Origin: Escherichia phage JK1
Length of the DNA: 64,000 bases
Sequence record: MZ436830.1
Direction: 5' to 3' (one strand)
The translations under genes and the position numbers were made by a program. A model generated the notes under the pieces. It was given only the letters and a program-made list of their open reading frames with translations. It was not told where the DNA came from and searched no databases. The first letter of the stretch is position 1, and each line of letters begins with the position of its first letter. Positions 21,910 through 46,922 of the stretch are shown here, in pieces.

Positions 21910-21913
21910 CAAT

Positions 21914-21939
21914 GGGGACCTTTCGGTCCCCATATTTTT
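21914..21939 (+). terminator. Terminator after gene 54
   Basis: GGGGACC-TTTC-GGTCCCC hairpin then ATATTTTTATTT. Confidence 0.7.
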
Positions 21940-22228
21940 ATTTACGGAATGAAATGAAAGCAGAAACTGAAGCAACTAAACTGTCTTCAATATAAACTTC
22001 AATTTTTACCGGAGCTTCTGACTCGAATTTACCTGTTACTACACCTTGGAAAATACTTTCAGTTTGTTCTGGCTTTGAAAAATTTTCAGAAGGAAAAATT
22101 CCGAACTTTTTATCTGTTCCAAAAATTTTGATAAATTCATCATAAACTGCTTCATTAAAAGCATTATCAGCAGGAATAACGCCTTCAACTACAAGTTCTT
22201 GACCCAAAAAGCGCAAAGAAGATTTCAT
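21938..22228 (-). CDS. Hypothetical protein (alt-downstream small ORF)
   Basis: 96 aa ORF; ATG at 22226-22228 preceded by GAGGA and an early-type promoter. Confidence 0.6.
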   Translation of the reverse strand: MKSSLRFLGQELVVEGVIPADNAFNEAVYDEFIKIFGTDKKFGIFPSENFSKPEQTESIFQGVVTGKFESEAPVKIEVYIEDSLVASVSAFISFRK

Positions 22229-22236
22229 TTTGTGTT

Positions 22237-22289
22237 CCTCATGTTATGTCAGTAAGACTACTATAACACAACACGAGGGACTTGTAAAC
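22237..22289 (-). repeat. 53-bp promoter/leader cassette, copy 1
   Basis: 51 of 53 positions identical to 37451-37503; spans -35 through the Shine-Dalgarno region. Confidence 0.85.
22260..22288 (-). promoter_or_regulatory. Early sigma70-type promoter (-35 TTTACA, 17 bp, -10 TATAGT)
   Basis: Minus strand GTTTACA-17-TATAGT followed by GAGGA and ATG 22228; inside the 53-bp repeat. Confidence 0.55.
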
Positions 22290-24346
22290 TACATCTTGAA
22301 CTTTTTAGACATTCCGTTGATGTTAACCAAAGAAGCCAAGATTTGAGAAACTTCGTTTTCCTCTTCTTTTGATTCTTCTACAAGGAATTGATTAAATCCA
22401 GCCATTGGACGAACTTCACCAGTTTCCATTAAATGGTCGCCATCATATACTGATTCTTCTAATTGTTCAGAAGGAGGAACGATTGTACCTTCTATTAGAT
22501 ACTTGTTATAAGCAGTTTCTTTCATAAAGTACGTGCTCACTTTATTAATCTTCAGTAAAATTCCACGCGGTAGAATAACTTCAGCTTCTGATGGAAATCC
22601 TGATAAATGACCTGGAACGATAACTTTGATTCGCTCAGCTCCTTTAATTACCATACCCACGCTAGTTTCAGCATCTTCATTAGCATATGTAGAATGACTA
22701 CCCATATGCATCAAATCTTCTGCATCAACGGAACCTTCTCCTTCACCAGAAAATACTGCGCCGGAATCATCTAGAGCCATATAGTTTTTACCATGCTCAC
22801 CGAAGATATTTGGTTTAAGCGATGTGGATACGAAGTTCTTGAAATAGAACATTTTATTTTCAATGTTATGACGCAAAGTTTTAAAGGTAACTTCTTGCCC
22901 ACGATAAAGAGTAGTTCCTGGAGGAAGAACAGAACCTTTAGCAAATGCAGAATCCAACGTCTCGATGTGTTTAATAGCTCGTTCCATATATTCTTCACGG
23001 GTAGAATCAGGTTTACCTAAAAGGAACGAGTTCATTTCAACATATGAATCTGCACAATAATCTTCAATTACATCAGATTCAGCTTGGGTTAATCCTTTTG
23101 GAGTTACTTCGGTGCTTGCGTATTCATATGCCTGAGCAGCAGATTCATTAATCAATTTATAAATGCCATTCATTACAAATTGAATAATAGCTGTCTTTTC
23201 ATCTGGCGTAGCTTTAGAACCTTTAACCAAATCATTGATAATTTTCTTAATAACATCAAAGCTATTAGAAATATTAATGTCAGCAAGATCGCTTAAAATT
23301 TTATCAGTTTTATAATCAAAGAATTCTTTATTCTTTAAATATTCTTGAGAACCTTGATATGTTATATCGCTCTGCAACTTGATGGATGGATCACGTAAAC
23401 GTGCATGGGCTAATGCAATATGATTTCGGAAACTTTCTAGTTCATAATCGTTAGATTTAAAACGAGAAGCACTCCTCATACCACCGATAGCTCCTTTGCT
23501 GAAGTTTGAACCAATCTGAATAACGCCAGAGTTCATTGGTCCTTCTGCTTTATATACCGGAACTTTAGATTCAAACTCTTGATATTTCTTAGCAGCGAAG
23601 CTATCACCCTGAAGTGAAGCATCAACAGTAGAATATTGAGCTTGTGCTGCTAATCGACGACTAATTTTAGTTTTCTGAATAACAGCTTGATCCGTGCGCT
23701 TATCATTTTCTAAAGCAATAGAAGCAGCGACAGCGACAGCTTTAGGAACAGCATTACCTGTTTTAACGTCTACATAAACATCACCAACCTTTGATTCAAC
23801 TTTTGTGAATAACTCAGTTGAAATAGGAGGTACACCTGGAATGTCTTCTAAATTGGCATTTTTACGGTAAACCATAATATATGCATATTTCTTATCATAG
23901 TCCCAGATTTCCTTTAAAAGAACATATCGACCTGCTCCTTTAGTACGTACTAAACGGTCAGCAATAACTTGCATTTGACGAGCTGCGCCATTTGTTTTAC
24001 TTTTTAGTACGCGGAATAGGCATGCGTCGATTTTATACTGTTTCATTGTTTGAAGAGCAGTATCAAAAACAGCATTAATGACGCCAATTGGATTTCCACC
24101 CAAGTTTCTAAGCTTGACTAACGATAATTTCTCGTTGACACCTATCATTACGATATGCATCATTTTGTCGCCTGGCTTAACGTTTTTATTCGTATCACCG
24201 CCAGAGGTGTATGTACAAAATCTAAATCCAGGAAGAACGCTTTCTTCACCGGCTTGAATAGCAAAAATTTGTGGTATTTTATGCTTAGGATTTAAGTTAA
24301 CAACCGGCGCCGAAGCGCCGTCAAATAATTCTGTAATAAGTTCCAT
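22289..24346 (-). CDS. Alt-family ADP-ribosyltransferase, paralog A
   Basis: 685 aa; N-terminus MELITELFD...; C-terminal R-S-EXE-like motifs (YRGQ, FVSTSL, SEAEVILPRG) and YDGDHLMETGEV tail. Confidence 0.85.
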   Translation of the reverse strand: MELITELFDGASAPVVNLNPKHKIPQIFAIQAGEESVLPGFRFCTYTSGGDTNKNVKPGDKMMHIVMIGVNEKLSLVKLRNLGGNPIGVINAVFDTALQTMKQYKIDACLFRVLKSKTNGAARQMQVIADRLVRTKGAGRYVLLKEIWDYDKKYAYIMVYRKNANLEDIPGVPPISTELFTKVESKVGDVYVDVKTGNAVPKAVAVAASIALENDKRTDQAVIQKTKISRRLAAQAQYSTVDASLQGDSFAAKKYQEFESKVPVYKAEGPMNSGVIQIGSNFSKGAIGGMRSASRFKSNDYELESFRNHIALAHARLRDPSIKLQSDITYQGSQEYLKNKEFFDYKTDKILSDLADINISNSFDVIKKIINDLVKGSKATPDEKTAIIQFVMNGIYKLINESAAQAYEYASTEVTPKGLTQAESDVIEDYCADSYVEMNSFLLGKPDSTREEYMERAIKHIETLDSAFAKGSVLPPGTTLYRGQEVTFKTLRHNIENKMFYFKNFVSTSLKPNIFGEHGKNYMALDDSGAVFSGEGEGSVDAEDLMHMGSHSTYANEDAETSVGMVIKGAERIKVIVPGHLSGFPSEAEVILPRGILLKINKVSTYFMKETAYNKYLIEGTIVPPSEQLEESVYDGDHLMETGEVRPMAGFNQFLVEESKEEENEVSQILASLVNINGMSKKFKM

Positions 24347-24349
24347 GAT

Positions 24350-26446
24350 TTATCCTTGAACGAACTTGTAAGGCATGTTTGTAATATCTATGCAAGACGC
24401 AATAATTCCAAGAGATGATTCTACTTTCTGTTTAACGTTTGATGAAACAAATGATGCAAAGTCAACTTTGTCTTCTATTTCAATATCACCTGTCATTGCA
24501 ACTACTTCGCCGGTTTCCATTAGATGGTCACCGTCATAAATTACCGATTCGGTGAGTTCTTCTGTGGTCATAACTTCAGCTTGAATAAGTTTTGTATTAT
24601 TAGATGTTGTTCCGTCATTATTAGAAGCATCAGTTATTTTATTAACTTTAACCATCAATCCGCGCGGTAGAATAACTTCAGCTTCTGTTGCTATTCCTAG
24701 ACTTCCTGGATATACAACATTAACTTTATGTGCGCCGTCAATTGCCCATCCTATTTGAACTTTAACGTATTCAGGATTTTCTTTATACGCTCTTATTTCG
24801 TTTGGATTAATAGTTATTCCTTCTTCATTTTTATCAACTGTTAATTCATTGCGAGCTTCTGGTTCTAAAAGACCAATACCAGCATGTGTAATTCCAAAAC
24901 GTCCAAAAATGATAGGAGTTAAAGAAGTAGATACAAAATTTCTGAAGTAGAACACTTTATTTTTAACTAACGCTTCATATATAGGAGCAGTCATACTTTG
25001 AGCACGATAAACTGTAATGCCTTCTGGTATACGGTCACCATTTTCAAAAGCTGAATCTAAGTTATTTATAGCAGATTCAATTTCTTTTTCACTCATTACA
25101 TCATATCGTTCTGGATTGTAACGACCTAAAAGAAGATTATTGATGTCAGTATATCCTGAACCGCAATATTCTCTAATGCCACGCTTTTGTGATGGAGTAT
25201 ATTTAGAACCATCGCGGGCAATAGTAATATCAATCATTGGACCAGCACCAATTCCAGAAAAACTGTAAATCATTCGTTTGAGGAATTTAGTTTTTGCTGC
25301 GTTCCAGGAATTTTTAGTTATTTCTTCCCAGACTTCATCTGGTTGTCCTTTACGATTTTTATTATGATTAGCAAGCCATTTATCTTTATAATCTTCAAAG
25401 AATTGATTTACAGCTGCTGCGTATTTCTCTAAACATTTTATTGAAGTAGTTGGTTCATTTTTAATTGCATTAAAAATTACTTCTTTAATTTTTTCTGAAA
25501 CTTCACCGACTTGACTCATTGGAAAGAATTTATAATCATAGTGAAGTTCATCTGCCGTTCCTTCAGCAATAATTTTTGCTGCCTTTGTTTTAGAAGCTAA
25601 TGAATTAATTCCAATTTTCATTTCTTCTGCTTCGGGAATTAAAGGTGCAGTAGCTGGTTTATTAAAATTAGCTGCTGTAGATTCATACTTCTGGAATAAT
25701 TCACTTTCAAATCTAGAAGATTCCAATGACTGACTTTGTGCAATTGCTCTACGGGAAATTTTAACTTTAACGATTACAGCTTGGTCAGAACGTTTATCGT
25801 TTTCTTGCGCAATAGATGCTGCAATTGCCTCATTTTTAGTTACTTGGGCTCCAGTATCTTTATTGATATAAACATCACCAACCTTCGATTCAACCTTAGT
25901 AAAGAGTTCAGTACTAATTTCTGGAACTCCTGGAATGTCTTCTAGTGATACGTTTTTACGATGTATAAGAATATATGCATACTTTTTATCGTAATCCCAG
26001 AGTTCCTTAAGAAGGACGTATCTGCCACCTGAACGACTACGGATAAGTCTATCAGCAATAACTTGAATTTGTCGAGCTTGACCAGCGGTTTTAGACTTAA
26101 GAATACGAAGCATACAAGCATCAATTTTATATTGACGCATTGTTTGCATTGCAACAGTAAAAACTGAATTGATATAATTAATTGGGCTTGGACCAAGACC
26201 TTTCAATTTAGCAATTGAACCTTTAGCAGTTAATGTAAAAGGAACAATATGCATCATTTTGTCGCCCATTTTTAAATCACGATTAGTATCACCTCCAGAT
26301 GTATAGGTACATAAACGAAAGCCTGGTTGTTCAATTGCATCATCAACATGAACTGAAAAAATTTGTGGTATTTTCTTCTTTGGATTTAAGTTTGTAATCG
26401 GAAGAGTAGTATCTTCGTCAAATAATTCTGTAATGAGTTCCATCAT
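24350..26446 (-). CDS. alt: Alt-family ADP-ribosyltransferase, paralog B
   Basis: 698 aa; N-terminus MMELITELFDEDTT...; motifs YRAQ, FVSTSL, TEAEVILPRG; late promoter at 26467-26474; which copy is the T4 alt ortholog is not settled. Confidence 0.85.
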   Translation of the reverse strand: MMELITELFDEDTTLPITNLNPKKKIPQIFSVHVDDAIEQPGFRLCTYTSGGDTNRDLKMGDKMMHIVPFTLTAKGSIAKLKGLGPSPINYINSVFTVAMQTMRQYKIDACMLRILKSKTAGQARQIQVIADRLIRSRSGGRYVLLKELWDYDKKYAYILIHRKNVSLEDIPGVPEISTELFTKVESKVGDVYINKDTGAQVTKNEAIAASIAQENDKRSDQAVIVKVKISRRAIAQSQSLESSRFESELFQKYESTAANFNKPATAPLIPEAEEMKIGINSLASKTKAAKIIAEGTADELHYDYKFFPMSQVGEVSEKIKEVIFNAIKNEPTTSIKCLEKYAAAVNQFFEDYKDKWLANHNKNRKGQPDEVWEEITKNSWNAAKTKFLKRMIYSFSGIGAGPMIDITIARDGSKYTPSQKRGIREYCGSGYTDINNLLLGRYNPERYDVMSEKEIESAINNLDSAFENGDRIPEGITVYRAQSMTAPIYEALVKNKVFYFRNFVSTSLTPIIFGRFGITHAGIGLLEPEARNELTVDKNEEGITINPNEIRAYKENPEYVKVQIGWAIDGAHKVNVVYPGSLGIATEAEVILPRGLMVKVNKITDASNNDGTTSNNTKLIQAEVMTTEELTESVIYDGDHLMETGEVVAMTGDIEIEDKVDFASFVSSNVKQKVESSLGIIASCIDITNMPYKFVQG

Positions 26447-26466
26447 ATCCTCTCTAGTGTTTATTC

Positions 26467-26474
26467 TATTTATA
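26467..26474 (-). promoter_or_regulatory. Late promoter TATAAATA (Alt paralog B, minus strand)
   Basis: Plus-strand TATTTATA 21 nt upstream of the ATG at 26446; preceded by a terminator hairpin. Confidence 0.6.
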
Positions 26475-26481
26475 AAATTAA

Positions 26482-26495
26482 AGGCCCGAAGGCCT
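26482..26495 (-). terminator. Terminator hairpin upstream of the Alt-B late promoter (minus strand)
   Basis: AGGCC-TTCG-GGCCT hairpin followed on the minus strand by a U-rich tract. Confidence 0.5.
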
Positions 26496-26684
26496 TTAAT
26501 AATCTATTGGTAAGAGAGTACGATATATTTCAAACTTTGGACCTTTTTCATAGGCATCAAATGTTTCTGTGAATTTATTATAAGCATATGCATCTATAAA
26601 TTCAATCATGATTTGTGATACAGAAGTAGAAACATCTCCACCTTCTTTTTGAGCCACGACAATTGTTTCTAAGTAAGCTTTCAT
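26496..26684 (-). CDS. Hypothetical small protein
   Basis: 62 aa ORF; 4-nt overlap with gene 30 stop. Confidence 0.5.
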   Translation of the reverse strand: MKAYLETIVVAQKEGGDVSTSVSQIMIEFIDAYAYNKFTETFDAYEKGPKFEIYRTLLPIDY

Positions 26685-28144
26685 AGACCAGTTACCTCAT
26701 GAAAATCACCAAATACATCTTCGAATGTATTAGCTTTAGTTTTATCTTCACGCAAACGAATCGCAATTGGAAGAAATAATTTAACGTAATCAGTGCGGCC
26801 ATCGGATTTTAACCAACCGTTGCATTCGCACTCTAGAATTTTTCCAATATAATAATTTTGGTTTTCCATAATGCGAGTACGGTCAAGTTCATGTGATTTT
26901 ACGCCGGCTTTATCTTTTAAGCCTGAACCGGCATTTACCTTAATTTTTCCACACTCTGACTCAAGAATAAATCCACCTGCTTTAGTAGGGTCTTTACGGT
27001 GAGGATAAATTCCTACAATTTTTAAATCAACATCAATTACTTCTTTAAATTTATAGAGATTTTTTGAACGAGCATTTTCCCATAATCCATCGATATTTTT
27101 GAGAATAATACCTTCAAGACCTTGATCAATATACTTTTTGTAAATTACCTTAGCTTCATCTAGGTTATTTACTACTTGGTTTTCAATTAAAATTACTTTA
27201 TCATAGCCTGATGTCATTTGTTCTAGTTTAGAAAAACGTACATCATACTTTAAACGAAATGCAGGAAGACCATATATTTCTACTAATGGAACATAATCCC
27301 AGACCTGAAACTTCATGCATTGTGCTTCTTTTTCGGAAATGGTTCCCTTTAAAGATTTATTAGCGATTCCATTAGAAGTAGTACGTGATTCAGCTACTTC
27401 GGCGAATTCTTTAGCTTTACTAATTTCAGGATAAGCATCAAAAAGAAAATCTAGGCCTTCTGGCTCCTTTTTAACTTGCTCATGGTATACCAATTCGCCA
27501 TCAATTAACACACCTTCTGGATGAATCTGGCGGGCTTCAGCGGTCATTTTGATTAACTCTTCCTTAAGAAGATCTAATCCTAGATATTCATTACCAGCTC
27601 GTGATAAAAGACGGACATCATCTAATTCATCACCTCTAACTTCAGCAAAACACCGAGCTCCATCTGCTTTTAATTGTGCAAAGGCTGGAAATTTGATATT
27701 CTTACTAATGCCTTTTTCATCATAAGAACTTGCGAGCATTTGAGGTTGTTCAGGAATTAAACCTGGCCAAACTTTGTTTGCAATAGATACTGAAGCACCA
27801 CATTCAAGGTCTCGCATCATCACTCGACGCAAAACTTCAACATCATCTTTTTTACCATCGGTGATATATCCAGTTAATTCCTCAATTGCCGCATTTCCAG
27901 TCAATTTCCGAGTAGCTAACGTGAATTCAATGAAGTCAAGCATATCGGTAAGAGTCAACATTCCAAAACTCTGGGTAGCAATACCAGGTTTAGGCCATTT
28001 CTTGATATAATACTGTAACCCACGAGAATAAGTCAGACGATATACTCGTTTAAGCAATTCATTATCTTTATTCTTTTCAAGAATTGCTTGCTTCTGCTTA
28101 GTTGAACCAATAGATGCTATTTCGTTCAGAATTTTAAGAATCAT
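26681..28144 (-). CDS. 30: ATP-dependent DNA ligase gp30
   Basis: 487 aa ORF with ligase motif I lysine context (QLKADGARCF); length equals recalled T4 ligase. Confidence 0.93.
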   Translation of the reverse strand: MILKILNEIASIGSTKQKQAILEKNKDNELLKRVYRLTYSRGLQYYIKKWPKPGIATQSFGMLTLTDMLDFIEFTLATRKLTGNAAIEELTGYITDGKKDDVEVLRRVMMRDLECGASVSIANKVWPGLIPEQPQMLASSYDEKGISKNIKFPAFAQLKADGARCFAEVRGDELDDVRLLSRAGNEYLGLDLLKEELIKMTAEARQIHPEGVLIDGELVYHEQVKKEPEGLDFLFDAYPEISKAKEFAEVAESRTTSNGIANKSLKGTISEKEAQCMKFQVWDYVPLVEIYGLPAFRLKYDVRFSKLEQMTSGYDKVILIENQVVNNLDEAKVIYKKYIDQGLEGIILKNIDGLWENARSKNLYKFKEVIDVDLKIVGIYPHRKDPTKAGGFILESECGKIKVNAGSGLKDKAGVKSHELDRTRIMENQNYYIGKILECECNGWLKSDGRTDYVKLFLPIAIRLREDKTKANTFEDVFGDFHEVTGL

Positions 28145-28410
28145 TGTTCATCCTTTAGAGTTTGGTTTACAGCTCTATTATAAATCAATTCATCATTAAG
28201 CTCAGTCAAAGACCTGTGGTACGTTGTTCTAACTTTATTTCCTTGCATCCAGTGCTTGACGTAAATGAAACCTTGCTCTACACATTTTTTAAAAATTCGT
28301 TCGTCTTTTTGAGCTCGGAATTCTGGATTGCATCTAAAAAATTGATTTACGTGACCGTAATCACGTGTAGTATTACCTTCATTTTCATAAATAGTGTGAA
28401 CGACAAACAT
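28141..28410 (-). CDS. Hypothetical protein (30.x cluster)
   Basis: 89 aa ORF; 4-nt overlap with gene 30 start. Confidence 0.6.
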   Translation of the reverse strand: MFVVHTIYENEGNTTRDYGHVNQFFRCNPEFRAQKDERIFKKCVEQGFIYVKHWMQGNKVRTTYHRSLTELNDELIYNRAVNQTLKDEQ

Positions 28411-29249
28411 TAGAATGCTCCTTGGAAAATATTATCACCACTAGTAGGTCTATTATACAAATACTCTATGCCACCAGGTTTAATATAGTTCCATGTCTGA
28501 AACGGATGTGTCTGATATGGATGATATAGATGATTATAAGGATTAAATCCAGGAGTTCTCCAGGTAGTGTTCCAAGGAAAAGAATCGTTTTTGATCATCT
28601 TCTCAATTACATCTTTTATAAATTTTTCACTATCAAAACTTTCTTTATTTTCCTTCGATGGAAAAAGCTTATTCTCTACATCATTCCATGTATAAACTCG
28701 CTGTGCAGTTTTTGGAATACTGTCACGCTCTCCTCGAGCCATCCAATAAACTGGAACATTTAATATTTCACTCGCATGATCGCAGTGGTGAGCGAGATCG
28801 TCAATATAACAAATTACGTTATATTTCTCTTTTGCCTTTTTGAACAACTCTTCTTTTGAAGAATCATGGCCACACATCAATACTTCTGAGAAGGCACCAG
28901 GAAAAAGAGCATTCAAATTAAATTGACGATTCAGCAGAGCGTCAATAGAATCACCCAATGCTGTAACAGCTACAAAATTATAATCTTCTTTTAATTTGTT
29001 AATTACACACAGAGCATCTTTATATGGAGACAAGTAACGAATAAAATCTGAACGATTATATTTTTCAATTAACTTGACACCAAGTTCTTCATCGCAATTA
29101 AAGAGCTTACCAGGAGAAATAAATTTTTCGTCCTGAATCATTTTTAAAATATGTTCTAATGGAAGATTATATTTTTGGGCAAAATAAGGAAGACCTGATT
29201 GCCAGCTTAAACATACACCATCAATATCAGTCAAAATAGTAGGCTTCAT
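28410..29249 (-). CDS. HAD-like hydrolase candidate (30.x cluster)
   Basis: 279 aa ORF; N-terminal DIDGV (HAD motif I-like) and a later YIDD segment. Confidence 0.55.
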   Translation of the reverse strand: MKPTILTDIDGVCLSWQSGLPYFAQKYNLPLEHILKMIQDEKFISPGKLFNCDEELGVKLIEKYNRSDFIRYLSPYKDALCVINKLKEDYNFVAVTALGDSIDALLNRQFNLNALFPGAFSEVLMCGHDSSKEELFKKAKEKYNVICYIDDLAHHCDHASEILNVPVYWMARGERDSIPKTAQRVYTWNDVENKLFPSKENKESFDSEKFIKDVIEKMIKNDSFPWNTTWRTPGFNPYNHLYHPYQTHPFQTWNYIKPGGIEYLYNRPTSGDNIFQGAF

Positions 29250-29710
29250 AGAGAGTCTCTTAGTAGGTTTAACACATCAATAAATTCAGCTTCGGTTAGT
29301 ATTGTATCATCTTTTGTTAGACCACTAGCCATGCTGTGCTTCAAAACTTTTCCTTTCGAGGCTTGTAATGCATCACGAAAGCCCTTGTTTTGGATCGCTG
29401 CTTCAAAATATGCATTTGTGTATAATTCTTTCCACGCCGGGGAGTATCTTGAAAACGGAACTCCGAGCCAGAAGAGGGTCCCACGGTCCTGAGCTCTTGC
29501 ATAAGACCTTCCAGCTTGCTGTGCGGCAAGCCCGGATAACCCAAATATACGACGTTGTTGTTCAACATTTTTCACCTTGCACCCTTGGAGGAATCCTTCA
29601 AGACCTCCAAATTGAATACCATCCATAACGAAAGGCCATTTGGCGAAATTACTTAATGCACATGATGGCCACCTAAAATTGCTTCTAATCTCTAACTCAG
29701 ACATTTTCAA
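29246..29710 (-). CDS. NADAR (YbiA-like) domain protein
   Basis: 154 aa ORF; SNFAKWPFVMDG...QGCKV... resembles the recalled core of E. coli YbiA-type NADAR proteins. Confidence 0.65.
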   Translation of the reverse strand: MKMSELEIRSNFRWPSCALSNFAKWPFVMDGIQFGGLEGFLQGCKVKNVEQQRRIFGLSGLAAQQAGRSYARAQDRGTLFWLGVPFSRYSPAWKELYTNAYFEAAIQNKGFRDALQASKGKVLKHSMASGLTKDDTILTEAEFIDVLNLLRDSL

Positions 29711-29903
29711 TGCTTATAATTTCAACATCAGCCCAATGACCATAGCAAGGAAGACGAAATTCAACTGGCCAGTTAGGGTCCTTTTCTAATATAATAGACT
29801 TAACTTGTGGTTCTTCATGTTCATCAGTATATGGATTTTTATCTGTTACTTTATATGTGACCTTAATGTACTGAATTCCAAAAATCTTATTAATTATATT
29901 CAT
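29697..29903 (-). CDS. Hypothetical small protein (30.x cluster)
   Basis: 68 aa ORF; overlaps neighbours at both ends. Confidence 0.5.
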   Translation of the reverse strand: MNIINKIFGIQYIKVTYKVTDKNPYTDEHEEPQVKSIILEKDPNWPVEFRLPCYGHWADVEIISIENV

Positions 29904-30097
29904 ACTAGTTCCTTTAATCCGTAAATAGGAGATAATTCATCACCCATACGAAGGTCTTCATTTCCATCTACCCAGGAAACAATATAAGCCTCTTTTATTT
30001 GAACACCACTCCATTTAAATGGAGGTAGAACCTTAGAAATTAATCCAGGTATACCAACTCCCTTTAATTCAACAGTTTGACCTAAAAAGAATTTCAT
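29900..30097 (-). CDS. Hypothetical small protein (30.x cluster)
   Basis: 65 aa ORF; coupled overlaps. Confidence 0.5.
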   Translation of the reverse strand: MKFFLGQTVELKGVGIPGLISKVLPPFKWSGVQIKEAYIVSWVDGNEDLRMGDELSPIYGLKELV

Positions 30098-30384
30098 TAG
30101 AACCTCATCTGAAAACCGTGCGATTTAACATTACCGCCGCCAATATCAGAAATGTTAATTTCACGCGCAATTGAAGGGTCAATGTCAATTTCGCGATTGA
30201 GTTTAGTGATAGCTAAAGTATCACGCCCATTTACAGTACGGAATTCTAAAGGACAAACCACATCAACGTAATTTTTAATCGATTCACTGGTAGGTTGCAA
30301 ATGAGCAGGAAGGTCTTTGGGCGCCTTTGAGAAAACCACTTCACAGAAATTTTTACGGGTATCAAAATAAGTAGTCATAAACAT
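30097..30384 (-). CDS. Hypothetical protein (30.x cluster)
   Basis: 95 aa ORF; ATG at 30382-30384. Confidence 0.55.
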   Translation of the reverse strand: MFMTTYFDTRKNFCEVVFSKAPKDLPAHLQPTSESIKNYVDVVCPLEFRTVNGRDTLAITKLNREIDIDPSIAREINISDIGGGNVKSHGFQMRF

Positions 30385-30425
30385 GGTATTTTCCTCAGTA
30401 AGGGGCCGAAGCCCCTCATTTTATT

Positions 30426-30791
30426 TTAAATATCAAATTCATTAAGAACTACATCAAAGATTGCTTCGAGATGTTCAGGTTTAGCTCTGTTACTCAGAAT
30501 ATGACGAATCCAAGTTTTAACCAAAAGCTTGCGATTAGCACCATTCCAACAAGGATGAGTCCCTAAATCGCGTTGACGGAAATCATCATCCAGAGCGATT
30601 TTAAAGTTGGAACCTTCCATTGTGATTGAAACCGTGATGCCATTTTCAAATCGCATATAAACGTAATTAGGAGTCATATACTGTTCAATTTCGCATACTG
30701 ATCCATTTTGATGTTTCCAAAGGCAGATAGTATCAATAGAACCTGCAATACCATTAGAAACATATTTACGTTCAAAGTTGATGTAGTTCAT
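30426..30791 (-). CDS. Hypothetical protein (30.x cluster)
   Basis: ORF track start 30803 is TTG; ATG at 30789-30791 (MNYINFERKY) follows GGAGAATAAA; early promoter upstream. Confidence 0.55.
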   Translation of the reverse strand: MNYINFERKYVSNGIAGSIDTICLWKHQNGSVCEIEQYMTPNYVYMRFENGITVSITMEGSNFKIALDDDFRQRDLGTHPCWNGANRKLLVKTWIRHILSNRAKPEHLEAIFDVVLNEFDI

Positions 30792-30826
30792 TTTATTCTC
30801 CAAGATGTTTAATTGCGGTACAGGTA

Positions 30827-30855
30827 TATAATATCATATCCTGTACCAAAGTAAA
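30827..30855 (-). promoter_or_regulatory. Early-type promoter candidate with embedded inverted repeat
   Basis: Minus strand GTTTACT then A/T-rich -10 candidates (TATTAT/ATTATA) at 16-18 bp; 8-bp inverted repeat GGTACAGG/CCTGTACC (30817-30824, 30840-30847) flanks the -10. Confidence 0.4.
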
Positions 30856-30860
30856 CTATT

Positions 30861-31229
30861 TTATGCAACTTTAATCCAATTATCTAAATTTAATTCACCT
30901 TTGGCTTTCATTTTTTCAATCAAGAGGTCAGCGGTAATACGACCATTTTGATACCACGTAACATCTTCAGAGTAACCAGTTTCTTTATCTTCATAAGTCT
31001 CACAACGAATTTTACCAATAATCAAAGTTTTCAATTCGTATGTATCTCCAGTAAAAAAGTTAGTTAACATTATTTTCCAAGAGAAATCATCAGAAGGACC
31101 TTCAGGAGTCATGCAACCTACAAATTCAAATTGTTCTTTGTATAAGTGCCACTGAAGTTCTTTAGTTTCGATAGCTTTATAGCCGTCGTGATCTTTACCT
31201 TTGATGTATGAGTTAAGATTGATTTTCAT
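30861..31229 (-). CDS. Hypothetical protein (30.x cluster)
   Basis: 122 aa ORF; early promoter and GAGGAGAATAAAATG upstream. Confidence 0.55.
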   Translation of the reverse strand: MKINLNSYIKGKDHDGYKAIETKELQWHLYKEQFEFVGCMTPEGPSDDFSWKIMLTNFFTGDTYELKTLIIGKIRCETYEDKETGYSEDVTWYQNGRITADLLIEKMKAKGELNLDNWIKVA

Positions 31230-31256
31230 TTTATTCTCCTTTGTTTGTGTAAGATA

Positions 31257-31285
31257 ATACTATCACAAAGGAACTATACTGTAAA
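31257..31285 (-). promoter_or_regulatory. Early-type promoter candidate
   Basis: Minus strand GTTTACA-17-TAGTAT, 28 nt upstream of ATG 31229, just downstream of a terminator hairpin. Confidence 0.45.
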
Positions 31286-31316
31286 CAACTTTATGCAATC
31301 TTTGGAAAATAAAAAA

Positions 31317-31334
31317 GGACTCCCGAAGGAGTCC
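31317..31334 (-). terminator. Terminator after the small basic protein gene (minus strand)
   Basis: GGACTCC-TTCG-GGAGTCC hairpin followed on the minus strand by TTTTTTATTTT. Confidence 0.65.
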
Positions 31335-31339
31335 TCAAC

Positions 31340-31516
31340 TTATGCTTTCTGCTTACCAAAACGAGAAGCATCATCTCGAAGAACCGCACGTGCTCGACGC
31401 ATGATCTTCTCAACAGTTTGATTAATACGAGAGTTCGACCCACGCTTGTAGCCAGCGCGTTTAGAATCACCAACTTTCTTTTCAACTGCTTTCTTTGCTT
31501 TAGCTTGTTTTGCCAT
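31340..31516 (-). CDS. Small highly basic protein
   Basis: 58 aa from ATG 31514-31516 (MAKQAKAKKAVEKKVGDSKRAGYKRGSNSRINQ...); ORF track extends to 31558; terminator hairpin downstream. Confidence 0.5.
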   Translation of the reverse strand: MAKQAKAKKAVEKKVGDSKRAGYKRGSNSRINQTVEKIMRRARAVLRDDASRFGKQKA

Positions 31517-31635
31517 TATAAATTCTCTTTTAAATGAAAATGCAGGACTTATTGGCATTGCCTGCGCAAGCCCTCAAGGGGTACTTAGGTTTTGAATATT
31601 TACCGACAGGATAACCATAAACCTCGTCAACATAA

Positions 31636-31884
31636 TTACTTCAGTGTTACCACAAAGTGACGAACTGCTTTTCGTGCAGCAGAAGCCAAAGGCTTAGCAT
31701 ATTTAAGCTCATCTTTTTCCTGGAGCTCAGCGGCTAATGCAGTTTGAGCAGGATTCAGATGTTTGAAATAACGCAGGATTTCAAGAGCTTCGGCTTCAAC
31801 ATCAATAGATGCGCCATAGTTTTCGTGACCATTATTCCATGCGTTTCGTTGCAGTTCAAGAGCGTGTTGTAATTGTTTAATCAT
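31636..31884 (-). CDS. rIII: rIII lysis inhibition accessory protein
   Basis: 82 aa ORF, length and sequence as recalled for T4 rIII; located downstream of gene 31. Confidence 0.75.
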   Translation of the reverse strand: MIKQLQHALELQRNAWNNGHENYGASIDVEAEALEILRYFKHLNPAQTALAAELQEKDELKYAKPLASAARKAVRHFVVTLK

Positions 31885-32023
31885 TTAAAAATTCTCGTTA
31901 GAGATTAAAACTCGGTAGTCACGTTCTTCTGAATTTCATCTTCTTTCGACAGATCTCTCAGTTGTAGACTACCACATAGAATTGTTCGGTTAACTTATTA
32001 TTCCGACACCCAATTCATATTAT

Positions 32024-32031
32024 TATTTATA
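32024..32031 (-). promoter_or_regulatory. Late promoter TATAAATA (candidate for rIII, minus strand)
   Basis: Plus-strand TATTTATA immediately after gene 31 stop, about 140 nt upstream of rIII. Confidence 0.4.
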
Positions 32032-32367
32032 TCACTTATAAAGACACGGAATAGCTTTATAGTGACAAGTAACGAATTTTTGTTTAATTTCTTTTGGCTG
32101 CTTAAGACCCAGAGCTACAAAAGGATGCGGAACATTTCGAATTTGACCAACTGGAAGAGAAGTCAAATCACCAACTTCGCAGAAACCTTCAGGAACATCA
32201 GGACCAACAGAGTGAACTACACACAGTTCAGGAACTTCACCTTGAACACGTTTACCGATAATAAGTCCTGATTCTGTAACTTCTTCATCACCAGCCTGTG
32301 CAGGTTCAGAAACTAAAATAACATATTCACCGACAGCACGAATTGGTAGCTGTTGTACTTCAGACAT
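32032..32367 (-). CDS. 31: Co-chaperonin gp31 (GroES analog)
   Basis: 111 aa ORF, length and position as T4 gp31; MotA-box middle promoter upstream. Confidence 0.88.
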
Positions 32368-32397
32368 CGTTTTTCCTTTTTGTTAACAGATGAATTA

Positions 32398-32422
32398 ATA
32401 ATAACAAATAATTCTTAAAGCA
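32398..32422 (-). promoter_or_regulatory. Middle (MotA-dependent) promoter candidate of gene 31
   Basis: Minus strand AAATGCTTTA MotA box (plus 32416-32422), 12-nt spacer, -10 TATTAT (plus 32398-32403). Confidence 0.45.
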
Positions 32423-32423
32423 T

Positions 32424-32732
32424 TTATTTACCAATAAATTGGAGTAAATGCTCAACTTTCATACCATTAACGGAAATCAATTTGTCAATAGAAAAACCTC
32501 GCCATGCACCAAGTTCAACATCAAATACTGGAATCATGTCAGTAGATTCTTTCCGAGTAGATTCAGTCAATTTACCAGTTTGCATGGTTGGCATAAAGTC
32601 TGCATCACGAGTACCTTTCATAGTACGAATAGTACCATCAGACTTTTCAAAAACTACGTTTGAAACACCCATGGACAATTTAGTTTTCAAAATTTCACGA
32701 ATTGCTACTTTCTGCTCAGTTGTCAGTTTCAT
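32424..32732 (-). CDS. Hypothetical protein (T4 31.1 position)
   Basis: 102 aa ORF upstream of gene 31. Confidence 0.6.
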   Translation of the reverse strand: MKLTTEQKVAIREILKTKLSMGVSNVVFEKSDGTIRTMKGTRDADFMPTMQTGKLTESTRKESTDMIPVFDVELGAWRGFSIDKLISVNGMKVEHLLQFIGK

Positions 32733-32969
32733 TTATTTACCTATTACAGTTTTAATATGAGTTGTTCCACGTTCTTTAAGGGTGGAAAGTAATTTTTGGC
32801 ATTTTTCTAAATCAGATTTCCAACTATACGGTCTATCAATACTAGTCCAATCAGTTTTATAATACTGTTTCCATTTAGAGAAAAAATATTTCTTATACTC
32901 TACAGCAAATGAGATGTTCTCATTAGAATAAGAACTAATTGCTGTAAGCTTTACCAAACGAAATTTCAT
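32733..32969 (-). CDS. Hypothetical protein (T4 31.2 position)
   Basis: 78 aa ORF. Confidence 0.55.
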   Translation of the reverse strand: MKFRLVKLTAISSYSNENISFAVEYKKYFFSKWKQYYKTDWTSIDRPYSWKSDLEKCQKLLSTLKERGTTHIKTVIGK

Positions 32970-33550
32970 TATTCACCACAGAATTCGTTGATATTTTCCC
33001 AATTTAACTTATTCAAGTTTTTCTTAGGAACATTAAACACTTCAATACCCGCATTTCGCAGAATATCATCCCAGCCAGGTTTATTTTTATCGTATGTTTC
33101 GCAATAAACCAGCTTTTTAATACCAGATTGAGCTATCGCTTTTGCACAATCTGGGCAAGGAGAAAGTGTTACATACATAGTAGCACCTTCAATAGAAGAA
33201 CCATTTCGCGCAGCAAACAAAATTGCATTTAGTTCAGCATGAATTTCATTTTTAGATGACCATTCCGAGTGAGCACTACGATGTTCTTTCGCCAAAACAA
33301 AACGATCAGTTGAACCAAATGATACGCATTCAGGCTTATGGCCTTGAATGATAGTGTGTTTAGGCTTATTCAACAACCAACCTTGCTCAGCAGCATAATC
33401 ACAACAGTTCACACCCCCTGCGGGGGAACCATTATACCCAGTAGAAATAATACGTCCATTCTTTTCAATTACTGCTCCTACCTTCCAGGAGCAACATTTT
33501 GATTCCTGTGATACTAAATATGCAATTTGAAGTACTGTACTCGCTTTCAT
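32969..33550 (-). CDS. cd: dCMP deaminase
   Basis: 193 aa ORF with cytidine/deoxycytidylate deaminase zinc motifs (HAE...PCxxC). Confidence 0.92.
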   Translation of the reverse strand: MKASTVLQIAYLVSQESKCCSWKVGAVIEKNGRIISTGYNGSPAGGVNCCDYAAEQGWLLNKPKHTIIQGHKPECVSFGSTDRFVLAKEHRSAHSEWSSKNEIHAELNAILFAARNGSSIEGATMYVTLSPCPDCAKAIAQSGIKKLVYCETYDKNKPGWDDILRNAGIEVFNVPKKNLNKLNWENINEFCGE

Positions 33551-33885
33551 TTCATAATCACCAGATAAGCAGATTTAGCAGTTTCAACACGATAAATTTC
33601 GTGACGAAGTTTAGTTATACTTTTAATAACAGAACTAATTATATTCTGCCCATCTTTAAAGCGGTTTTTCTTATCAATAAAAATTGCGCCAACCATCTTT
33701 TTGTGAAGCTCAACTGGATACTTCGTCACAATAATAGCATCATACACAGAAGGATGAATACTATTCACTAGAGTATCATTCATTAAAGTTATTCTAATGA
33801 ACTGTGCTGTTTCAGAATCAAGCGCTCTATGATCGCCAGTATCATTTTCAAGACAATTATCAATTATATCAGTTAAATTCATCAT
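33547..33885 (-). CDS. Hypothetical protein (cd.x cluster)
   Basis: 112 aa ORF; 4-nt overlap with cd start. Confidence 0.55.
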   Translation of the reverse strand: MMNLTDIIDNCLENDTGDHRALDSETAQFIRITLMNDTLVNSIHPSVYDAIIVTKYPVELHKKMVGAIFIDKKNRFKDGQNIISSVIKSITKLRHEIYRVETAKSAYLVIMK

Positions 33886-34118
33886 AGTACGCCATACACC
33901 CTTTGTGCTTCAACTAATCCATCAAAATCCAGTTTAAGATGCGATATTTGATCGCCATCACCTGGATTCACAATTACTAATACTGAACGAGGAGTTTCGG
34001 TAATAACACGAACCGATGTTTCAGGAAATCGTTCAGAAACCTTATTTACCAATTCCTGTGCAAATAGTTTAACTTTTTCTTGGAATTCTTTAACAGTAAT
34101 TGGTTTTTCACTTAGCAT
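33882..34118 (-). CDS. Hypothetical protein (cd.x cluster)
   Basis: 78 aa ORF; ATG 34116-34118; early promoter upstream. Confidence 0.55.
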   Translation of the reverse strand: MLSEKPITVKEFQEKVKLFAQELVNKVSERFPETSVRVITETPRSVLVIVNPGDGDQISHLKLDFDGLVEAQRVYGVL

Positions 34119-34148
34119 TTTGTTTTCCTCATTTGTTTTGGTAGAGCT

Positions 34149-34177
34149 ATAATATCACAACTCTACCGTAAAGTAAA
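34149..34177 (-). promoter_or_regulatory. Early-type promoter candidate with embedded inverted repeat
   Basis: Minus strand GTTTACT-17-TATTAT; 7-bp inverted repeat GGTAGAG/CTCTACC (34140-34146, 34161-34167) flanks the -10. Confidence 0.45.
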
Positions 34178-34180
34178 CTG

Positions 34181-34456
34181 TTAAATTGCTTTGAATTCTG
34201 ATGTCTGTGATTCAAAGCGAATATCGCCTTTGATGACTAGCTCAGCATCAAGACCAAATACGACAATGATATGCGCAGAACCTGGATACAGCGTAATGGC
34301 AATAGAATCCACCTGGTCTGGAAGCAAAGTGTTCAATACATGAGTCACTTGAGCATGAATTCGAAGCTCGGCTGCGTTATCAAGCTTTTCAAACATATTA
34401 TTAGCGATAATTTGGCTAAAAACTACTTCTACGATTTTAGAATAAGTCGGAAACAT
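34181..34456 (-). CDS. Hypothetical protein (cd.x cluster)
   Basis: 91 aa ORF. Confidence 0.55.
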   Translation of the reverse strand: MFPTYSKIVEVVFSQIIANNMFEKLDNAAELRIHAQVTHVLNTLLPDQVDSIAITLYPGSAHIIVVFGLDAELVIKGDIRFESQTSEFKAI

Positions 34457-34458
34457 AT

Positions 34459-34651
34459 TTACCTCACATAATTTTCTTCAAGCCAATCAATAACATCCAA
34501 CGCATTATCAAAAGTTGAACCATCTACTTTTTCTTCTGTTTCATAATCAAGAACATCTAAGCCTAATCTTCCGTTAACAATAGGCCATAAACAAAATAGA
34601 TATTTCTTTTCTTTTTCAATTTTATCACAAAGACGATAAATCTTTTCTAGG

Positions 34652-34659
<8 letters not shown>
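34459..34659 (-). CDS. Hypothetical small protein (cd.x cluster)
   Basis: 66 aa ORF. Confidence 0.5.
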
Positions 34660-36074
<1,415 letters not shown>

Positions 36075-36308
36075 TTATTTTTTCTCAACCAATGATTGAA
36101 TATAATCATGCAGGTCTTTAGATGCTTTACCCCACTTATTTTGATATTCATTTTTGAGATTAGCGCGTGATTGAGCTAATAAAACATCATTAGTTGGAGG
36201 TAAAGATTCTAATCGCTGAATCTGGCGTCCATAAATCATTGCAGCCATCTCGGATTCATAAATCAATCCTTTAAGATGTTCAAATTGATGCCATGAAATC
36301 ATTTGCAT
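36075..36308 (-). CDS. Hypothetical protein (pseT.x cluster)
   Basis: 77 aa ORF. Confidence 0.5.
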   Translation of the reverse strand: MQMISWHQFEHLKGLIYESEMAAMIYGRQIQRLESLPPTNDVLLAQSRANLKNEYQNKWGKASKDLHDYIQSLVEKK

Positions 36309-36598
36309 TTATCCTCTTTTAACTCTTGACGATAATAACATATCATAGTTTTCTGGTCATGTACATATCGTTTTACATCATTAAGCCAAATACGAAATTC
36401 CTGGGAATCTTCAAATGGCATACCGACCCAAGCTTTACCATCAATAACTTTAACTTGCCAAGATAGTTTAGCTTCATCATATGACTTTATTTGTACAGGC
36501 CAATTAGGATGAACTGTTTCTTTCTTTACTTCTAGAGGCTTTGTCGAACAACCAACTAGAAGACCAATAGATAATATTACTGCTGATAGTTTAATCAT
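36299..36598 (-). CDS. Outer-membrane spanin candidate (lipoprotein)
   Basis: 99 aa; signal peptide with lipobox LLVGC; directly downstream of and overlapping the i-spanin-like ORF (4 nt); corresponds to T4 pseT.2 by recall. Confidence 0.65.
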   Translation of the reverse strand: MIKLSAVILSIGLLVGCSTKPLEVKKETVHPNWPVQIKSYDEAKLSWQVKVIDGKAWVGMPFEDSQEFRIWLNDVKRYVHDQKTMICYYRQELKEDKCK

Positions 36599-36948
36599 TT
36601 AGAAAGGTCCTGGATGTCTTCTGCGAACTTGTTGAAGGAGTTGTTGATTTGTTTTTCAACCAATCCTGGCTTATGAGCCACCACATCCGCCTTCTTTGCG
36701 TCTTTGCGCAGTTTTTCATTTTCACGCTCAATAGCAGCAATTGCCTCACGATTTTTATTATTCATCGCATCAATATAATTATACTGAATTCGCAAATTAT
36801 TTAATGCTAAGGCGTTTTCATTGGCCGTTTTTGTAATTTCAGTAACCGATGTTTCTAATCTTTCTACCTTATTTTTTAAAATAATAGATGTTCCGCCAAA
36901 TACTATTACAAGTAATAGCAAACCTGCTGTCGTATTACTTAATTGCAT
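36595..36948 (-). CDS. Inner-membrane spanin candidate
   Basis: 117 aa; N-terminal TM helix (GLLLLVIVFGGTSIIL) then coiled-coil region; corresponds to T4 pseT.3 by recall. Confidence 0.65.
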   Translation of the reverse strand: MQLSNTTAGLLLLVIVFGGTSIILKNKVERLETSVTEITKTANENALALNNLRIQYNYIDAMNNKNREAIAAIERENEKLRKDAKKADVVAHKPGLVEKQINNSFNKFAEDIQDLSK

Positions 36949-37445
36949 AAAGTTTTAATAACCTCTATAATATCGTCTTGAGAAAGACCGTTAATTAAAA
37001 TATGATGTTCCGCCGGAGATTTAGAAATTTTAAAGCATGCCGCAACATCTTCTGCCATATCCGATGCGCTACGATTTGGATTACTAATTCCAAGACGATG
37101 TTTTCCCGTTAAAGGATTAACGATGATATAGCATTTACAGCTATTGATATGAACATTAGGTTGAGTCTGATTAATGAACACTTCACAATCATACTTAGCG
37201 AGTTGATTTTCTAAAAAGACTTTCATCTCTTCAACCGCATCAGGAAGCATATCACGGGCTTGCTCAAGACGACGATTTCGATATTCTTTAATGGTCGTTT
37301 TCCGCTTGACTTGCTTAGCTAAATCTTTCTTAAGATCGGTGATATATCCAACTCGACGATTTCCTTTAAATACAGAAATCCCATCTGTAGTATCACCGTA
37401 TGCTTCAACGACCATTTCAGTAGTAATAAGCTGCAAATCCATCAT
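36939..37445 (-). CDS. alc: Alc, host transcription termination/unfoldase protein
   Basis: 168 aa ORF (MMDLQLITTEMVVEAYG...), length and position as T4 Alc; early promoter upstream. Confidence 0.85.
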   Translation of the reverse strand: MMDLQLITTEMVVEAYGDTTDGISVFKGNRRVGYITDLKKDLAKQVKRKTTIKEYRNRRLEQARDMLPDAVEEMKVFLENQLAKYDCEVFINQTQPNVHINSCKCYIIVNPLTGKHRLGISNPNRSASDMAEDVAACFKISKSPAEHHILINGLSQDDIIEVIKTLCN

Positions 37446-37450
37446 AAAGT

Positions 37451-37503
37451 CCTCATGCTATGTCAGTAAGATTACTATAACACAACACGAGGGACTTGTA
37501 AAC
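37451..37503 (-). repeat. 53-bp promoter/leader cassette, copy 2
   Basis: 51 of 53 positions identical to 22237-22289; lies between the rnlA stop and the alc start. Confidence 0.85.
37474..37502 (-). promoter_or_regulatory. Early sigma70-type promoter upstream of alc
   Basis: Minus strand GTTTACA-17-TATAGT, GAGGA, ATG 37445; second copy of the 53-bp repeat. Confidence 0.55.
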
Positions 37504-37506: not shown

Positions 37507-39094
<1,588 letters not shown>

Positions 39095-46587: not shown

Positions 46588-46818
46588 TTATTGTTCAATC
46601 AGTCCCATGTAAAATTCTGCGTCTTCAGAATCCATGCCGTCACAATACTCATTAGCCATAAAGCGGGTGAGGTCTTCAAGAGGACCTTCAATGACAATAG
46701 AAAAATTGCAATAATTGGGATCATCGTGAATACTTGTGATACTAAGCTCAGGATAACGATTACGAATAATTTCTTCAATATATTCAAAATCAACGATGTC
46801 AATATCAACTTTAGCCAT
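46588..46818 (-). CDS. Hypothetical small acidic protein
   Basis: ATG 46816-46818 (MAKVDIDIV...) has AGAGGA upstream; ORF track start 46839 lacks an SD; first gene after the early promoter downstream of gene 32. Confidence 0.5.
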
Positions 46819-46861
46819 ATTATTTTCCTCTTTAATCATCAGCAGTATTGCCGATAGTTGT

Positions 46862-46890
46862 ATAGTACCACAGTCCTTGTGGTATGTAAA
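46862..46890 (-). promoter_or_regulatory. Early-type promoter candidate downstream of gene 32 terminator
   Basis: Minus strand GTTTACA-17-TACTAT; spacer contains inverted repeat TACCACA-GTCCT-TGTGGTA. Confidence 0.45.
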
Positions 46891-46922
46891 CTGTTTTGTG
46901 AAAAAATTTTTGAAATAAAAAA

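Follow-up and report, generated by a model that had tools for sequence, protein, structure and literature searches.

The genome of Escherichia phage JK1 (sequence record MZ436830.1) carries, in front of alc and in front of the homologue of T4 alt.-3, two nearly identical copies of a 54-nucleotide (nt) element, which comprises an early promoter, a short leader and the Shine-Dalgarno (SD) sequence, and whose promoter spacer is predicted to pair with the SD region in RNA that is transcribed from further upstream. The window that was analyzed covers 64,000 nt of this genome and belongs to a Tequatrovirus with ~98% identity to many T4-like coliphages. All coordinates are positions in this window, and gene names were assigned by comparison with annotated T4. 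The explanation that we favor, and that we hold to be probable though by no means certain, is that an early-promoter module with an SD-masking hairpin was copied from alc to alt.-3 by an old gene conversion. The module has probably been kept intact by the hairpin that would form in the longer upstream transcripts and hide the ribosome-binding site.

The alc and alt.-3 Promoters Share More Than the Early-Promoter Consensus

The repeat lies on the minus strand at positions 22236–22289 (copy 1, alt.-3) and 37450–37503 (copy 2, alc) and has two mismatches (repeat family D7, 96% identical). Copy 1, read from 22289 to 22236, is GTTTACAAGTCCCTCGTGTTGTGTTATAGTAGTCTTACTGACATAACATGAGGA. Copy 2, read from 37503 to 37450, differs from it by a G>A exchange two bases past the -10 element and by an A>G exchange in CATAACAT. 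The original prediction, which was made from the sequence of the window, had described a near-identical cassette of 53 bp at these two loci, consisting of GTTTACA, a 17-bp spacer, TATAGT and a leader that runs to GAGGA before the ATG of a small open reading frame (ORF) at 22228 and of alc at 37445. This description holds, except that the repeat is one base longer, and both copies are modules of early promoter, leader and SD sequence. The promoter scan yielded TTTACA-17-TATAGT for both, with 10/12 matches to the sigma-70 consensus and a TG in front of the -10 element. Identity between the copies breaks off sharply at the upstream edge of GTTTACA and at the downstream edge of GAGGA. No third copy occurs in the window when up to three mismatches are allowed, and shuffled sequences are expected to give 0 matches. 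The upstream flanks of both copies, where an UP element would lie, are coding and mutually unrelated; copy 1 has AAAAAG near -50, and copy 2 has no clear A-tract there. Since the identity starts at the -35 element, no UP-like A-tract is shared. The alt.-3 site carries a promoter annotation in some GenBank records, probably by prediction.

T4 early promoters have an extended consensus composed of GTTTAC, TGn and the -10 element plus extra positions (PMC2988021), and with GTTTACA, the 17-bp spacer, TG and TATAGT directly upstream of an early gene both copies belong to this class. However, membership in the class does not explain an identity of 52/54 or the presence of complementary arms. We compared nine GTTTAC-type promoters from the minus strand of the window, anchored at GTTTAC. 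The alc/alt.-3 pair shares 52/54 positions, compared to 35/54 for the second-best pair and a median of 25. When the -35 and the extended -10 elements are left out, the alc/alt.-3 pair still shares 36/38 positions compared to at most 21/38 for the other pairs. Thus, the identity of the two promoters is not a matter of consensus conservation. It goes beyond what the promoter consensus requires, as had been predicted, and the possibility that many early promoters have equally long identical leaders was not borne out among the nine.

The Promoter Spacer Is Predicted to Pair With the Shine-Dalgarno Region in Read-Through RNA

RNA folding of transcripts that enter a cassette from upstream predicts that the spacer segment CCUCGUGUUGUGUU pairs with the leader segment GACAUAACAUGAGG over 14 bp, complemented by a 4-bp apical stem. 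The apical part of this hairpin holds the -10 element and the predicted start, and its stem base holds the GAGG of the SD sequence. For alc, pairing continues to 1 nt before the AUG. The predicted folding free energy of the read-through RNA is -25.3 kcal/mol for copy 1 (z -4.5) and -27.3 kcal/mol for copy 2 (z -4.6), and 0 of 200 shuffled sequences were as good. RNA from the cassette's own promoter, taken to start ~7 nt past the -10 element, has no 5' arm and remains unstructured (-2.5 and -2.9 kcal/mol, z ~+0.5).

The stem contains three G.U pairs, and the sense RNA reaches -22.0 kcal/mol compared to -12.8 kcal/mol for the antisense RNA. When the complementary strand was folded with DNA parameters, it was not significantly structured (z -1.1 and +0.7). 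According to these models, the hairpin is a strand-specific structure of the sense RNA. The terminator scan gave no terminator-like site at either cassette, and no hairpin was found upstream of the -35 element. An Rfam scan of the whole window yielded no family at gathering score; the cassette gave only chance-level matches to miRNA precursors (17 bits compared to the 140–200 required). The earlier description of the repeat did not include the hairpin and thereby overlooked what appears to be the main reason for the conservation of the leader, namely the pairing of spacer and SD sequence in an RNA hairpin whose arms covary.

The Arms Covary Across alc Lineages

For the comparison of alc leaders, rnlA-alc intergenic regions were collected from other Tevenvirinae genera and from 41 IMG/VR loci, and arm pairing was judged by minimum free energy (MFE) folds of the single sequences and by a test of own versus cross-lineage duplexes. 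In most alc lineages, GTTTACA is directly followed by an arm of 9–14 nt with a perfect or nearly perfect complement in a stretch of the leader that includes the SD sequence. Examples of such pairs (5' arm/3' arm) are TCTCCGTTTAGTT/AACTAAACGGAGA, TCTCCATTTGGTT/AACCAAATGGAGA, TCCTCATCAG/CTGATGAGGA, TCTCCTCAT/ATGAGGAGA, TCCTCATTTTGTTG/CAACAAAATGAGGA, CCTCTCGTTTTTG/CAAAAACGAGAGG, and CCTCGTTTGTT/AACAAACGAGG. Across 14 alc lineages the mean duplex energy is -14.3 kcal/mol for a spacer with its own leader, compared to -7.2 kcal/mol for cross-lineage combinations (permutation p = 5e-5). A strong own duplex between the 15 nt after GTTTACA and the leader (-16 to -21 kcal/mol) is present in 10 of the 14 lineages, and in seven of these ten hairpin-bearing lineages the 3' arm covers the SD sequence and ends 1–7 nt before the AUG. 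Each of the 15 arm positions after GTTTACA shows two to four Watson-Crick pair types when 34 unique alc sequences are folded by MFE.

Within Tequatrovirus, where 23 copies were compared, five of the seven types of substitution in the main stem keep or improve the pairing, and the two disruptive changes sit at the ends of the helix. One alt.-3 lineage of Tequatrovirus shows the series C-G to U.G to U-A, whereby the compensating change lies within the SD sequence itself (GAGGA to AAGGA). Together, the covariation across about ten lineages suggests that the alc hairpin is under selection.

When 25 alc leaders were simply aligned with MAFFT, RNAalifold returned no structure, because the 3' arms are in different registers among these leaders. 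A covariance model built on a Karam/Gelderland-type seed matched every alc module, the alt.-3 copies of Tequatrovirus and two further promoters of the window; since it mis-registered the divergent lineages, its alignment was excluded from the pair counts.

The Module Has Replaced the alt.-3 Promoter in Tequatrovirus

A BLAST search with the 54-mer yielded 997 places in 499 phage records, which is about two per genome, all of them Tequatrovirus-like, and no match in another genus at that sensitivity. Every copy that was read sits at one of the same two loci, alc or alt.-3, and T4 itself has both copies, one mismatch apart. A search for further copies in the window and in related phages, along the lines that the original prediction had suggested, gave none beyond the two loci, neither in the window at up to three mismatches nor among the copies that were read. 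From this distribution, the cassette is a fixed, genus-wide two-copy repeat and not a proliferating element.

In all non-Tequatrovirus genera that were sampled (Dhaka-, Gapriver-, Mosig-, Karam-, Gelderland- and Marfavirus-like), the alt.-3 promoter is of a different type. It has a short hairpin that lies wholly within the spacer and exposes a GGA-containing loop (CCACAAGGATGTGG, GCACAAGGAAGTGC, ACATCCATGGAAGGATGT, and similar), its leader ends in ..ACATGAGGA(A/G)AAC, and it is unlike the alc module of the same genome. An alc-type module at alt.-3 was found in Tequatrovirus only among the genera sampled, and the Tequatrovirus alt.-3 leader past GAGGA (ACACAAAATG) still resembles the alt.-3 leaders of the other genera. 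Therefore, the two-copy identity is best read as an old gene conversion from alc to alt.-3, whereby a single non-reciprocal exchange in the ancestor of Tequatrovirus is the simplest reading of the sequence distribution. Such an ectopic conversion would have replaced the ancestral alt.-3 promoter with the alc module, and its end points would fall in motifs that are common to both promoters, namely GTTTACA and ATGAGGA. The near-identity would have been kept because nearly every position lies in a promoter element, in the stem or in the SD sequence.

A Dhakavirus-like contig (2706795356; L037, L062) presents a 31-nt leader, ccttacacaaacatgaggagaacattatgaa, which extends from after the -10 element to ATGAA. 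Only in this genome is it identical at alc and alt.-3; the alc leader of other Dhakaviruses is different. With TCTCCTCATG paired to CATGAGGAGA, the contig still has the hairpin. Its sequence suggests that a partial exchange between alc and alt.-3 took place a second time, independently and in the reverse direction.

For ongoing homogenization, a metagenome scan for further Tequatrovirus copies gave only nine loci, and IMG/VR contained about five Tequatrovirus contigs. The mean distance between the paralogous copies within a genome is 2.2, compared to 2.4 for cross-site comparisons between genomes (nine genomes only), which gives no clear sign of ongoing homogenization. No fixed site-specific differences between the Tequatrovirus copies were found, and in PV654517 two derived variants are common to both copies. 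Of the earlier suggestion that the cassette is mobile or recombinogenic or was recently converted, the exchange between promoters stands as the best explanation of the identity; a mobile element does not agree with the restriction to two fixed loci, nor a recent event with the genus-wide occurrence that includes T4. A third exchange, which would have given Mosigvirus an alc promoter of the alt.-3 type, is not claimed, because some comparisons across genera reach at least the 78% identity that was seen there.

A Putative Translational Gate With an Early Nested Promoter

Each copy would represent a complete early-gene expression module with a strong sigma-70-type promoter, a short leader and an SD sequence. 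Since no terminator-like site was found between either cassette and its upstream gene and alt was reported to be a late gene (PMC9697503), read-through RNA is expected at both loci. Transcripts that arrive from upstream, i.e., from rnlA into alc and from the late-expressed alt paralogue into alt.-3, would carry both arms, so that the SD sequence would be locked in a stem of ~18 bp. Transcripts from the own promoter would start within the loop, would not contain the 5' arm and would leave the SD sequence free. Independent translation of alc and alt.-3 would then be limited to RNA from their own immediate-early promoters. On read-through RNA, translation would be blocked, or allowed only if the lower end of the stem is melted by a ribosome terminating at the neighboring upstream stop codon; in either case the hairpin would prevent independent initiation on such RNA.

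By analogy, the closest mechanism is the translational gate of the T4 genes e, soc, 49 and I-TevI, in which long early transcripts sequester the SD sequence or the AUG in a helix, and a promoter within the hairpin gives rise to a short translatable RNA (PMC3014915). The cassettes resemble these genes in that, by structure prediction and covariation, the SD sequence lies in a stable helix in transcripts from upstream, and in that the predicted start of the nested promoter is downstream of the whole 5' arm, which would give an RNA lacking this arm. They differ in that the nested promoter of e, soc, 49 and I-TevI is a late one (gp55) and delays translation, whereas that of the cassettes is of the early -35/-10 type, and in that the 5' arm of the cassettes is the promoter's own -35/-10 spacer. 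As the nested promoter is immediate-early here, the timing is inverted, and translation would be limited to the early phase. The review that describes the known cases does not mention alc and does not list alt.-3 among its nested-promoter examples (PMC3014915). As far as sequence and structure prediction tell, the cassette varies a known regulatory theme of T4 in a new way, with an early promoter nested in a putative SD-masking hairpin.

T4 is the reference system for the temporal control of phage gene expression, and the hairpins with nested late promoters are textbook cases. If the proposed gate is correct, alc and alt.-3 would be freely translated only while the early promoters are active, though later transcripts still cross the genes. 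Part of the shut-off of early proteins, Alc among them, would then have a simple post-transcriptional basis; how T4 early promoters are shut off has been called mechanistically unresolved (PMC3014915). The covarying arms of about ten lineages offer a ready-made set of compensatory mutants. The replacement of the alt.-3 promoter indicates that in T4-type phages whole regulatory modules, besides genes, move between loci, and for phage engineering with these promoters it would matter that spacer and leader are probably functionally linked.

Weighing of Alternative Explanations

Several points weigh against the explanation by an SD-masking module copied from alc. Its functional step rests on the analogy to the T4 genes named above, and the papers available, for which T4 start-site maps were also sought, gave no transcription start, RNA probing or translation data for either cassette. 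In all lineages the upstream stop codon lies 6–13 nt before the 5' arm, so that a terminating ribosome could open the stem and the hairpin might couple translation to the upstream gene instead of blocking it. In three of the ten hairpin-bearing alc lineages (L032, L049, L039) the 3' arm ends just 5' of the SD sequence, and alc of Mosigvirus, L036, L050 and L051/L053 shows no spacer:SD hairpin; Gaprivervirus also lacks it and has a different arrangement. At several other early promoters of the window, hairpins anchored in the spacer make no contact with the SD sequence, which allows for a more general and different role, e.g., in stability, processing or pausing. Lastly, the direction of the conversion is a matter of parsimony over a limited sample of genera.

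That the two promoters merely reflect the ordinary consensus of T4 early promoters, with no special tie between both sites, can practically be dismissed. All nine promoters of the window do have GTTTAC and a TG-extended -10 element, in line with the published consensus (PMC2988021), and often CTTAC near +1, but the pairwise counts given above already refute this explanation, and within single genomes of other genera the promoter of alc is unlike that of alt.-3 over the whole spacer and leader. More serious, yet still unlikely in our view, is the proposal that the cassette belongs to the promoter-early stem-loop (PeSL) kind, to which the original prediction had likened it, and mediates modular gene shuffling by insertions, deletions and mini-circles instead of translational regulation. 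PeSLs are defined by an AT-rich region, a stem-loop terminator just upstream of the promoter, -35/-10 elements and an SD sequence, occur in many copies in hyperplastic regions and are tied to indels and mini-circles (PMC2839356, PMC4122927). The cassettes are likewise repeated intergenic modules with a strong early promoter, a stem-loop, an SD sequence and the downstream ORF's start codon. Crossovers between early promoter cassettes have been mapped between the -10 element and the SD/ATG (PMC2839356), with which the two independent alc/alt.-3 promoter exchanges deduced from sequence would fit, as would the genome with two derived variants in both copies, and the concept has been extended to the T4/PST pair (PMC4122927). 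However, the stem-loop of a PeSL is a terminator upstream of the -35 element, whereas that of the cassettes encloses the -10 element, ends on the SD sequence and has no terminator features; no stem-loop or terminator precedes the cassette promoter, and the identity begins at the -35 element. PeSLs are numerous and clustered near indels, whereas the cassettes occur about twice per genome at the same two loci in 499 records. The 15 kb between the copies hold conserved genes, including those of DNA ligase and gene 31, both of which are essential. In T4 the alt paralogue is truncated within the gene, with no cassette at the boundary of the truncation, and a comparison of flanking gene content in T4, the window and metagenomic relatives revealed no cassette-bounded swaps. 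The paralogue distance within genomes is about that between genomes, and shuffling does not explain the covariation of the arms. Since the position of the stem-loop, the terminator feature, the copy number and the link to gene shuffling all disagree, we do not file the cassette as a PeSL.

Two further explanations accept the inverted repeat and assign it another function. It could co-regulate both promoters as DNA, either as the operator of a dimeric regulator or as a cruciform, and a common binding site would then account for the identity. Repressors commonly bind over the core promoter, where the repeat lies, and the unresolved shut-off of T4 early promoters (PMC3014915) would leave room for such a regulator, but the arm sequences vary freely among lineages while their complementarity is kept, and in other genera the arms are not common to both promoters. 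Moreover, the G.U pairs of the stem are A.C mismatches on the other strand, in keeping with the difference between sense and antisense RNA and with the DNA fold of the complementary strand, so that we regard an operator as very improbable. About as doubtful as the PeSL proposal, and hence well ahead of the operator, is a hairpin that acts on the fate of the read-through RNA and not on initiation, be it as a pause site or attenuator, as a 3'-end stabilizer of the upstream mRNA or as an RNase III or RegB-related processing signal. The spacer-armed hairpins that stop short of the SD sequence, i.e., those at the window promoters 30855, 34177 and 45897 and those of the three alc lineages, would suit such a role. 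PeSL stem-loops were reported to be effective terminators (PMC2839356), and RNA structure shields GGAG sites from RegB (PMC3014915), whereby the alc SD sequences of other genera are GGAG. Against this explanation, no U-tract follows the stem and the terminator scan was negative, the T4-type SD sequence GAGGA has no GGAG, and in most hairpin-bearing alc lineages (7/10) the stem includes the SD sequence and ends close to the AUG.

Hairpins at Other Early Promoters

Seven of the nine early promoters of the window show a significant hairpin with its 5' arm in the spacer (-12 to -24 kcal/mol) and unstructured own transcripts, and the test of own versus cross pairing between spacer and leader gave p = 0.002. 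It is conceivable, but on balance rather doubtful, that a promoter within a hairpin is a general, unrecognized grammar of T4-type early units, such that the spacers of most early promoters hold the 5' half of an RNA element that exists in read-through RNA only. Such an element would pair with the SD sequence (alc, alt.-3, 31285), close over the -10 element or present a CsrA-like GGA loop (alt.-3 of other genera). In that case the translation or RNA fate of each early gene would be insulated from upstream transcription, and the alc/alt.-3 identity would be the transplant of a whole insulated module.

At the promoter at 31285 (window 31227–31286, minus strand), the spacer segment UUCCUUUG pairs with the SD segment CAAAGGAG. 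Its orthologues in Gapriver- and Dhaka-like phages (L090–L094) also show spacer:SD pairing with other arms, TCCAGTG/CACTGGA and TCTCCGG/CTGGAGA. The promoters at 30855, 34177 and 45897 (minus strand) have inverted repeats that enclose the -10 element (GGTACAGG/CCTGTACC, GGTAGAG/CTCTACC and GGCTAT/ATAGCC, respectively; -15 to -16 kcal/mol), with the 3' arm at about +1 to +10 and clear of the SD sequence.

A short hairpin that lies wholly in the -35/-10 spacer and has a GGA-containing loop, e.g., CCACAAGGAUGUGG, occurs at window positions 46816–46891 (minus strand). The same type is present in L009, L011, L013 and L061–L079, and also in L006/L038/L096 (Mosigvirus alc), and its stem covaries between genera. 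A second GGA follows in the SD sequence 35–40 nt downstream. The hairpin resembles the CsrA SELEX site (RUACARGGAUGU); a literature search for a link between CsrA and T4 mRNA found none.

Neighboring Genes and Further Repeats

The features of the two loci are compiled in Table 1.

Table 1. Position of the cassettes, their predicted hairpin arms and the adjacent genes in the JK1 window.
Feature	Position	Strand	Description
Cassette copy 1	22236–22289	-	In front of the alt.-3 homologue; -35 TTTACA 22288–22283; TG and -10 TATAGT 22265–22260; predicted start ~22253; SD GAGGA 22240–22236
Hairpin 5' arm, copy 1, CCUCGUGUUGUGUU	22265–22278	-	Predicted by RNA folds; within the -35/-10 spacer, upstream of the own predicted start
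Hairpin 3' arm, copy 1, GACAUAACAUGAGG	22237–22250	-	Predicted by RNA folds; includes GAGG of the SD
alt.-3 homologue	21938–22228	-	Served by copy 1; 96 aa
Bidirectional terminator-like hairpin	21912–21933	.	Located between alt.-3 and gene 54, which is convergent; ends the transcription unit of alt.-3
Second full-length alt paralogue	22289–24346	-	Gene upstream of copy 1; stop TAG overlaps the G of GTTTACA
Cassette copy 2	37450–37503	-	In front of alc; -35 37502–37497; -10 37479–37474; predicted start ~37467; SD 37454–37450
Hairpin 5' arm, copy 2	37479–37497	-	Predicted by RNA fold; alc-specific extension AAGUC pairs with GACUU just before the AUG
Hairpin 3' arm, copy 2	37447–37464	-	Predicted by RNA fold; covers the SD, ends 1 nt before the alc AUG
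alc	36939–37445	-	Served by copy 2; 168 aa, inhibits host transcription
rnlA (gene 63)	37507–38667	-	Gene upstream of copy 2; stop TAA 4 nt before GTTTACA

The second alt paralogue is the likely source of read-through RNA into copy 1, because alt was reported as a late gene (PMC9697503). At the other locus, the terminator scan found no terminator between rnlA and copy 2. Two full-length tandem paralogues of the ADP-ribosyltransferase gene alt are present on the minus strand (22289–24346 and 24350–26446, encoding 685 and 698 aa, respectively) and were detected as the repeat families D2, D6 and D14 with a spacing of ~2.1 kb. T4 has retained only remnants of the second copy, which are annotated as alt.-1 and alt.-2, as an old partial duplication. 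A terminator-like core, GGGACCTTTCGGTCCC, occurs at two sites of the window, 8101–8147 and 21915–21961 (repeat family D11, 70% over 47 nt), the latter of which is the bidirectional terminator after alt.-3.

With regard to alc, Gaprivervirus VR25 (L004, 560–793; also L024, L025 and L052) has an extra ORF of 77 aa between rnlA and alc, whose product resembles the N-terminus of Alc, which suggests a partial duplication of alc. This ORF has its own terminator-like hairpin and a promoter region upstream, and the layout of the alc leader is unlike that of the other genera. In the Mosigvirus Shf125875 (NC_025437; L006, 741–1304), the annotated ATG of alc overlaps the rnlA stop codon and adds 21 codons across the predicted promoter. 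The start is probably mis-annotated, as the SD-preceded ATG at 804 agrees with the other genera. A 28-nt match (89%, family D16) between the DNA ligase gene region (27845–27872) and the 5' part of alc (37323–37350) is probably due to chance. Apart from these loci, the window contains a tandem direct repeat of 288 nt at 10269–10844, the two copies of which are 79% identical (family D1).

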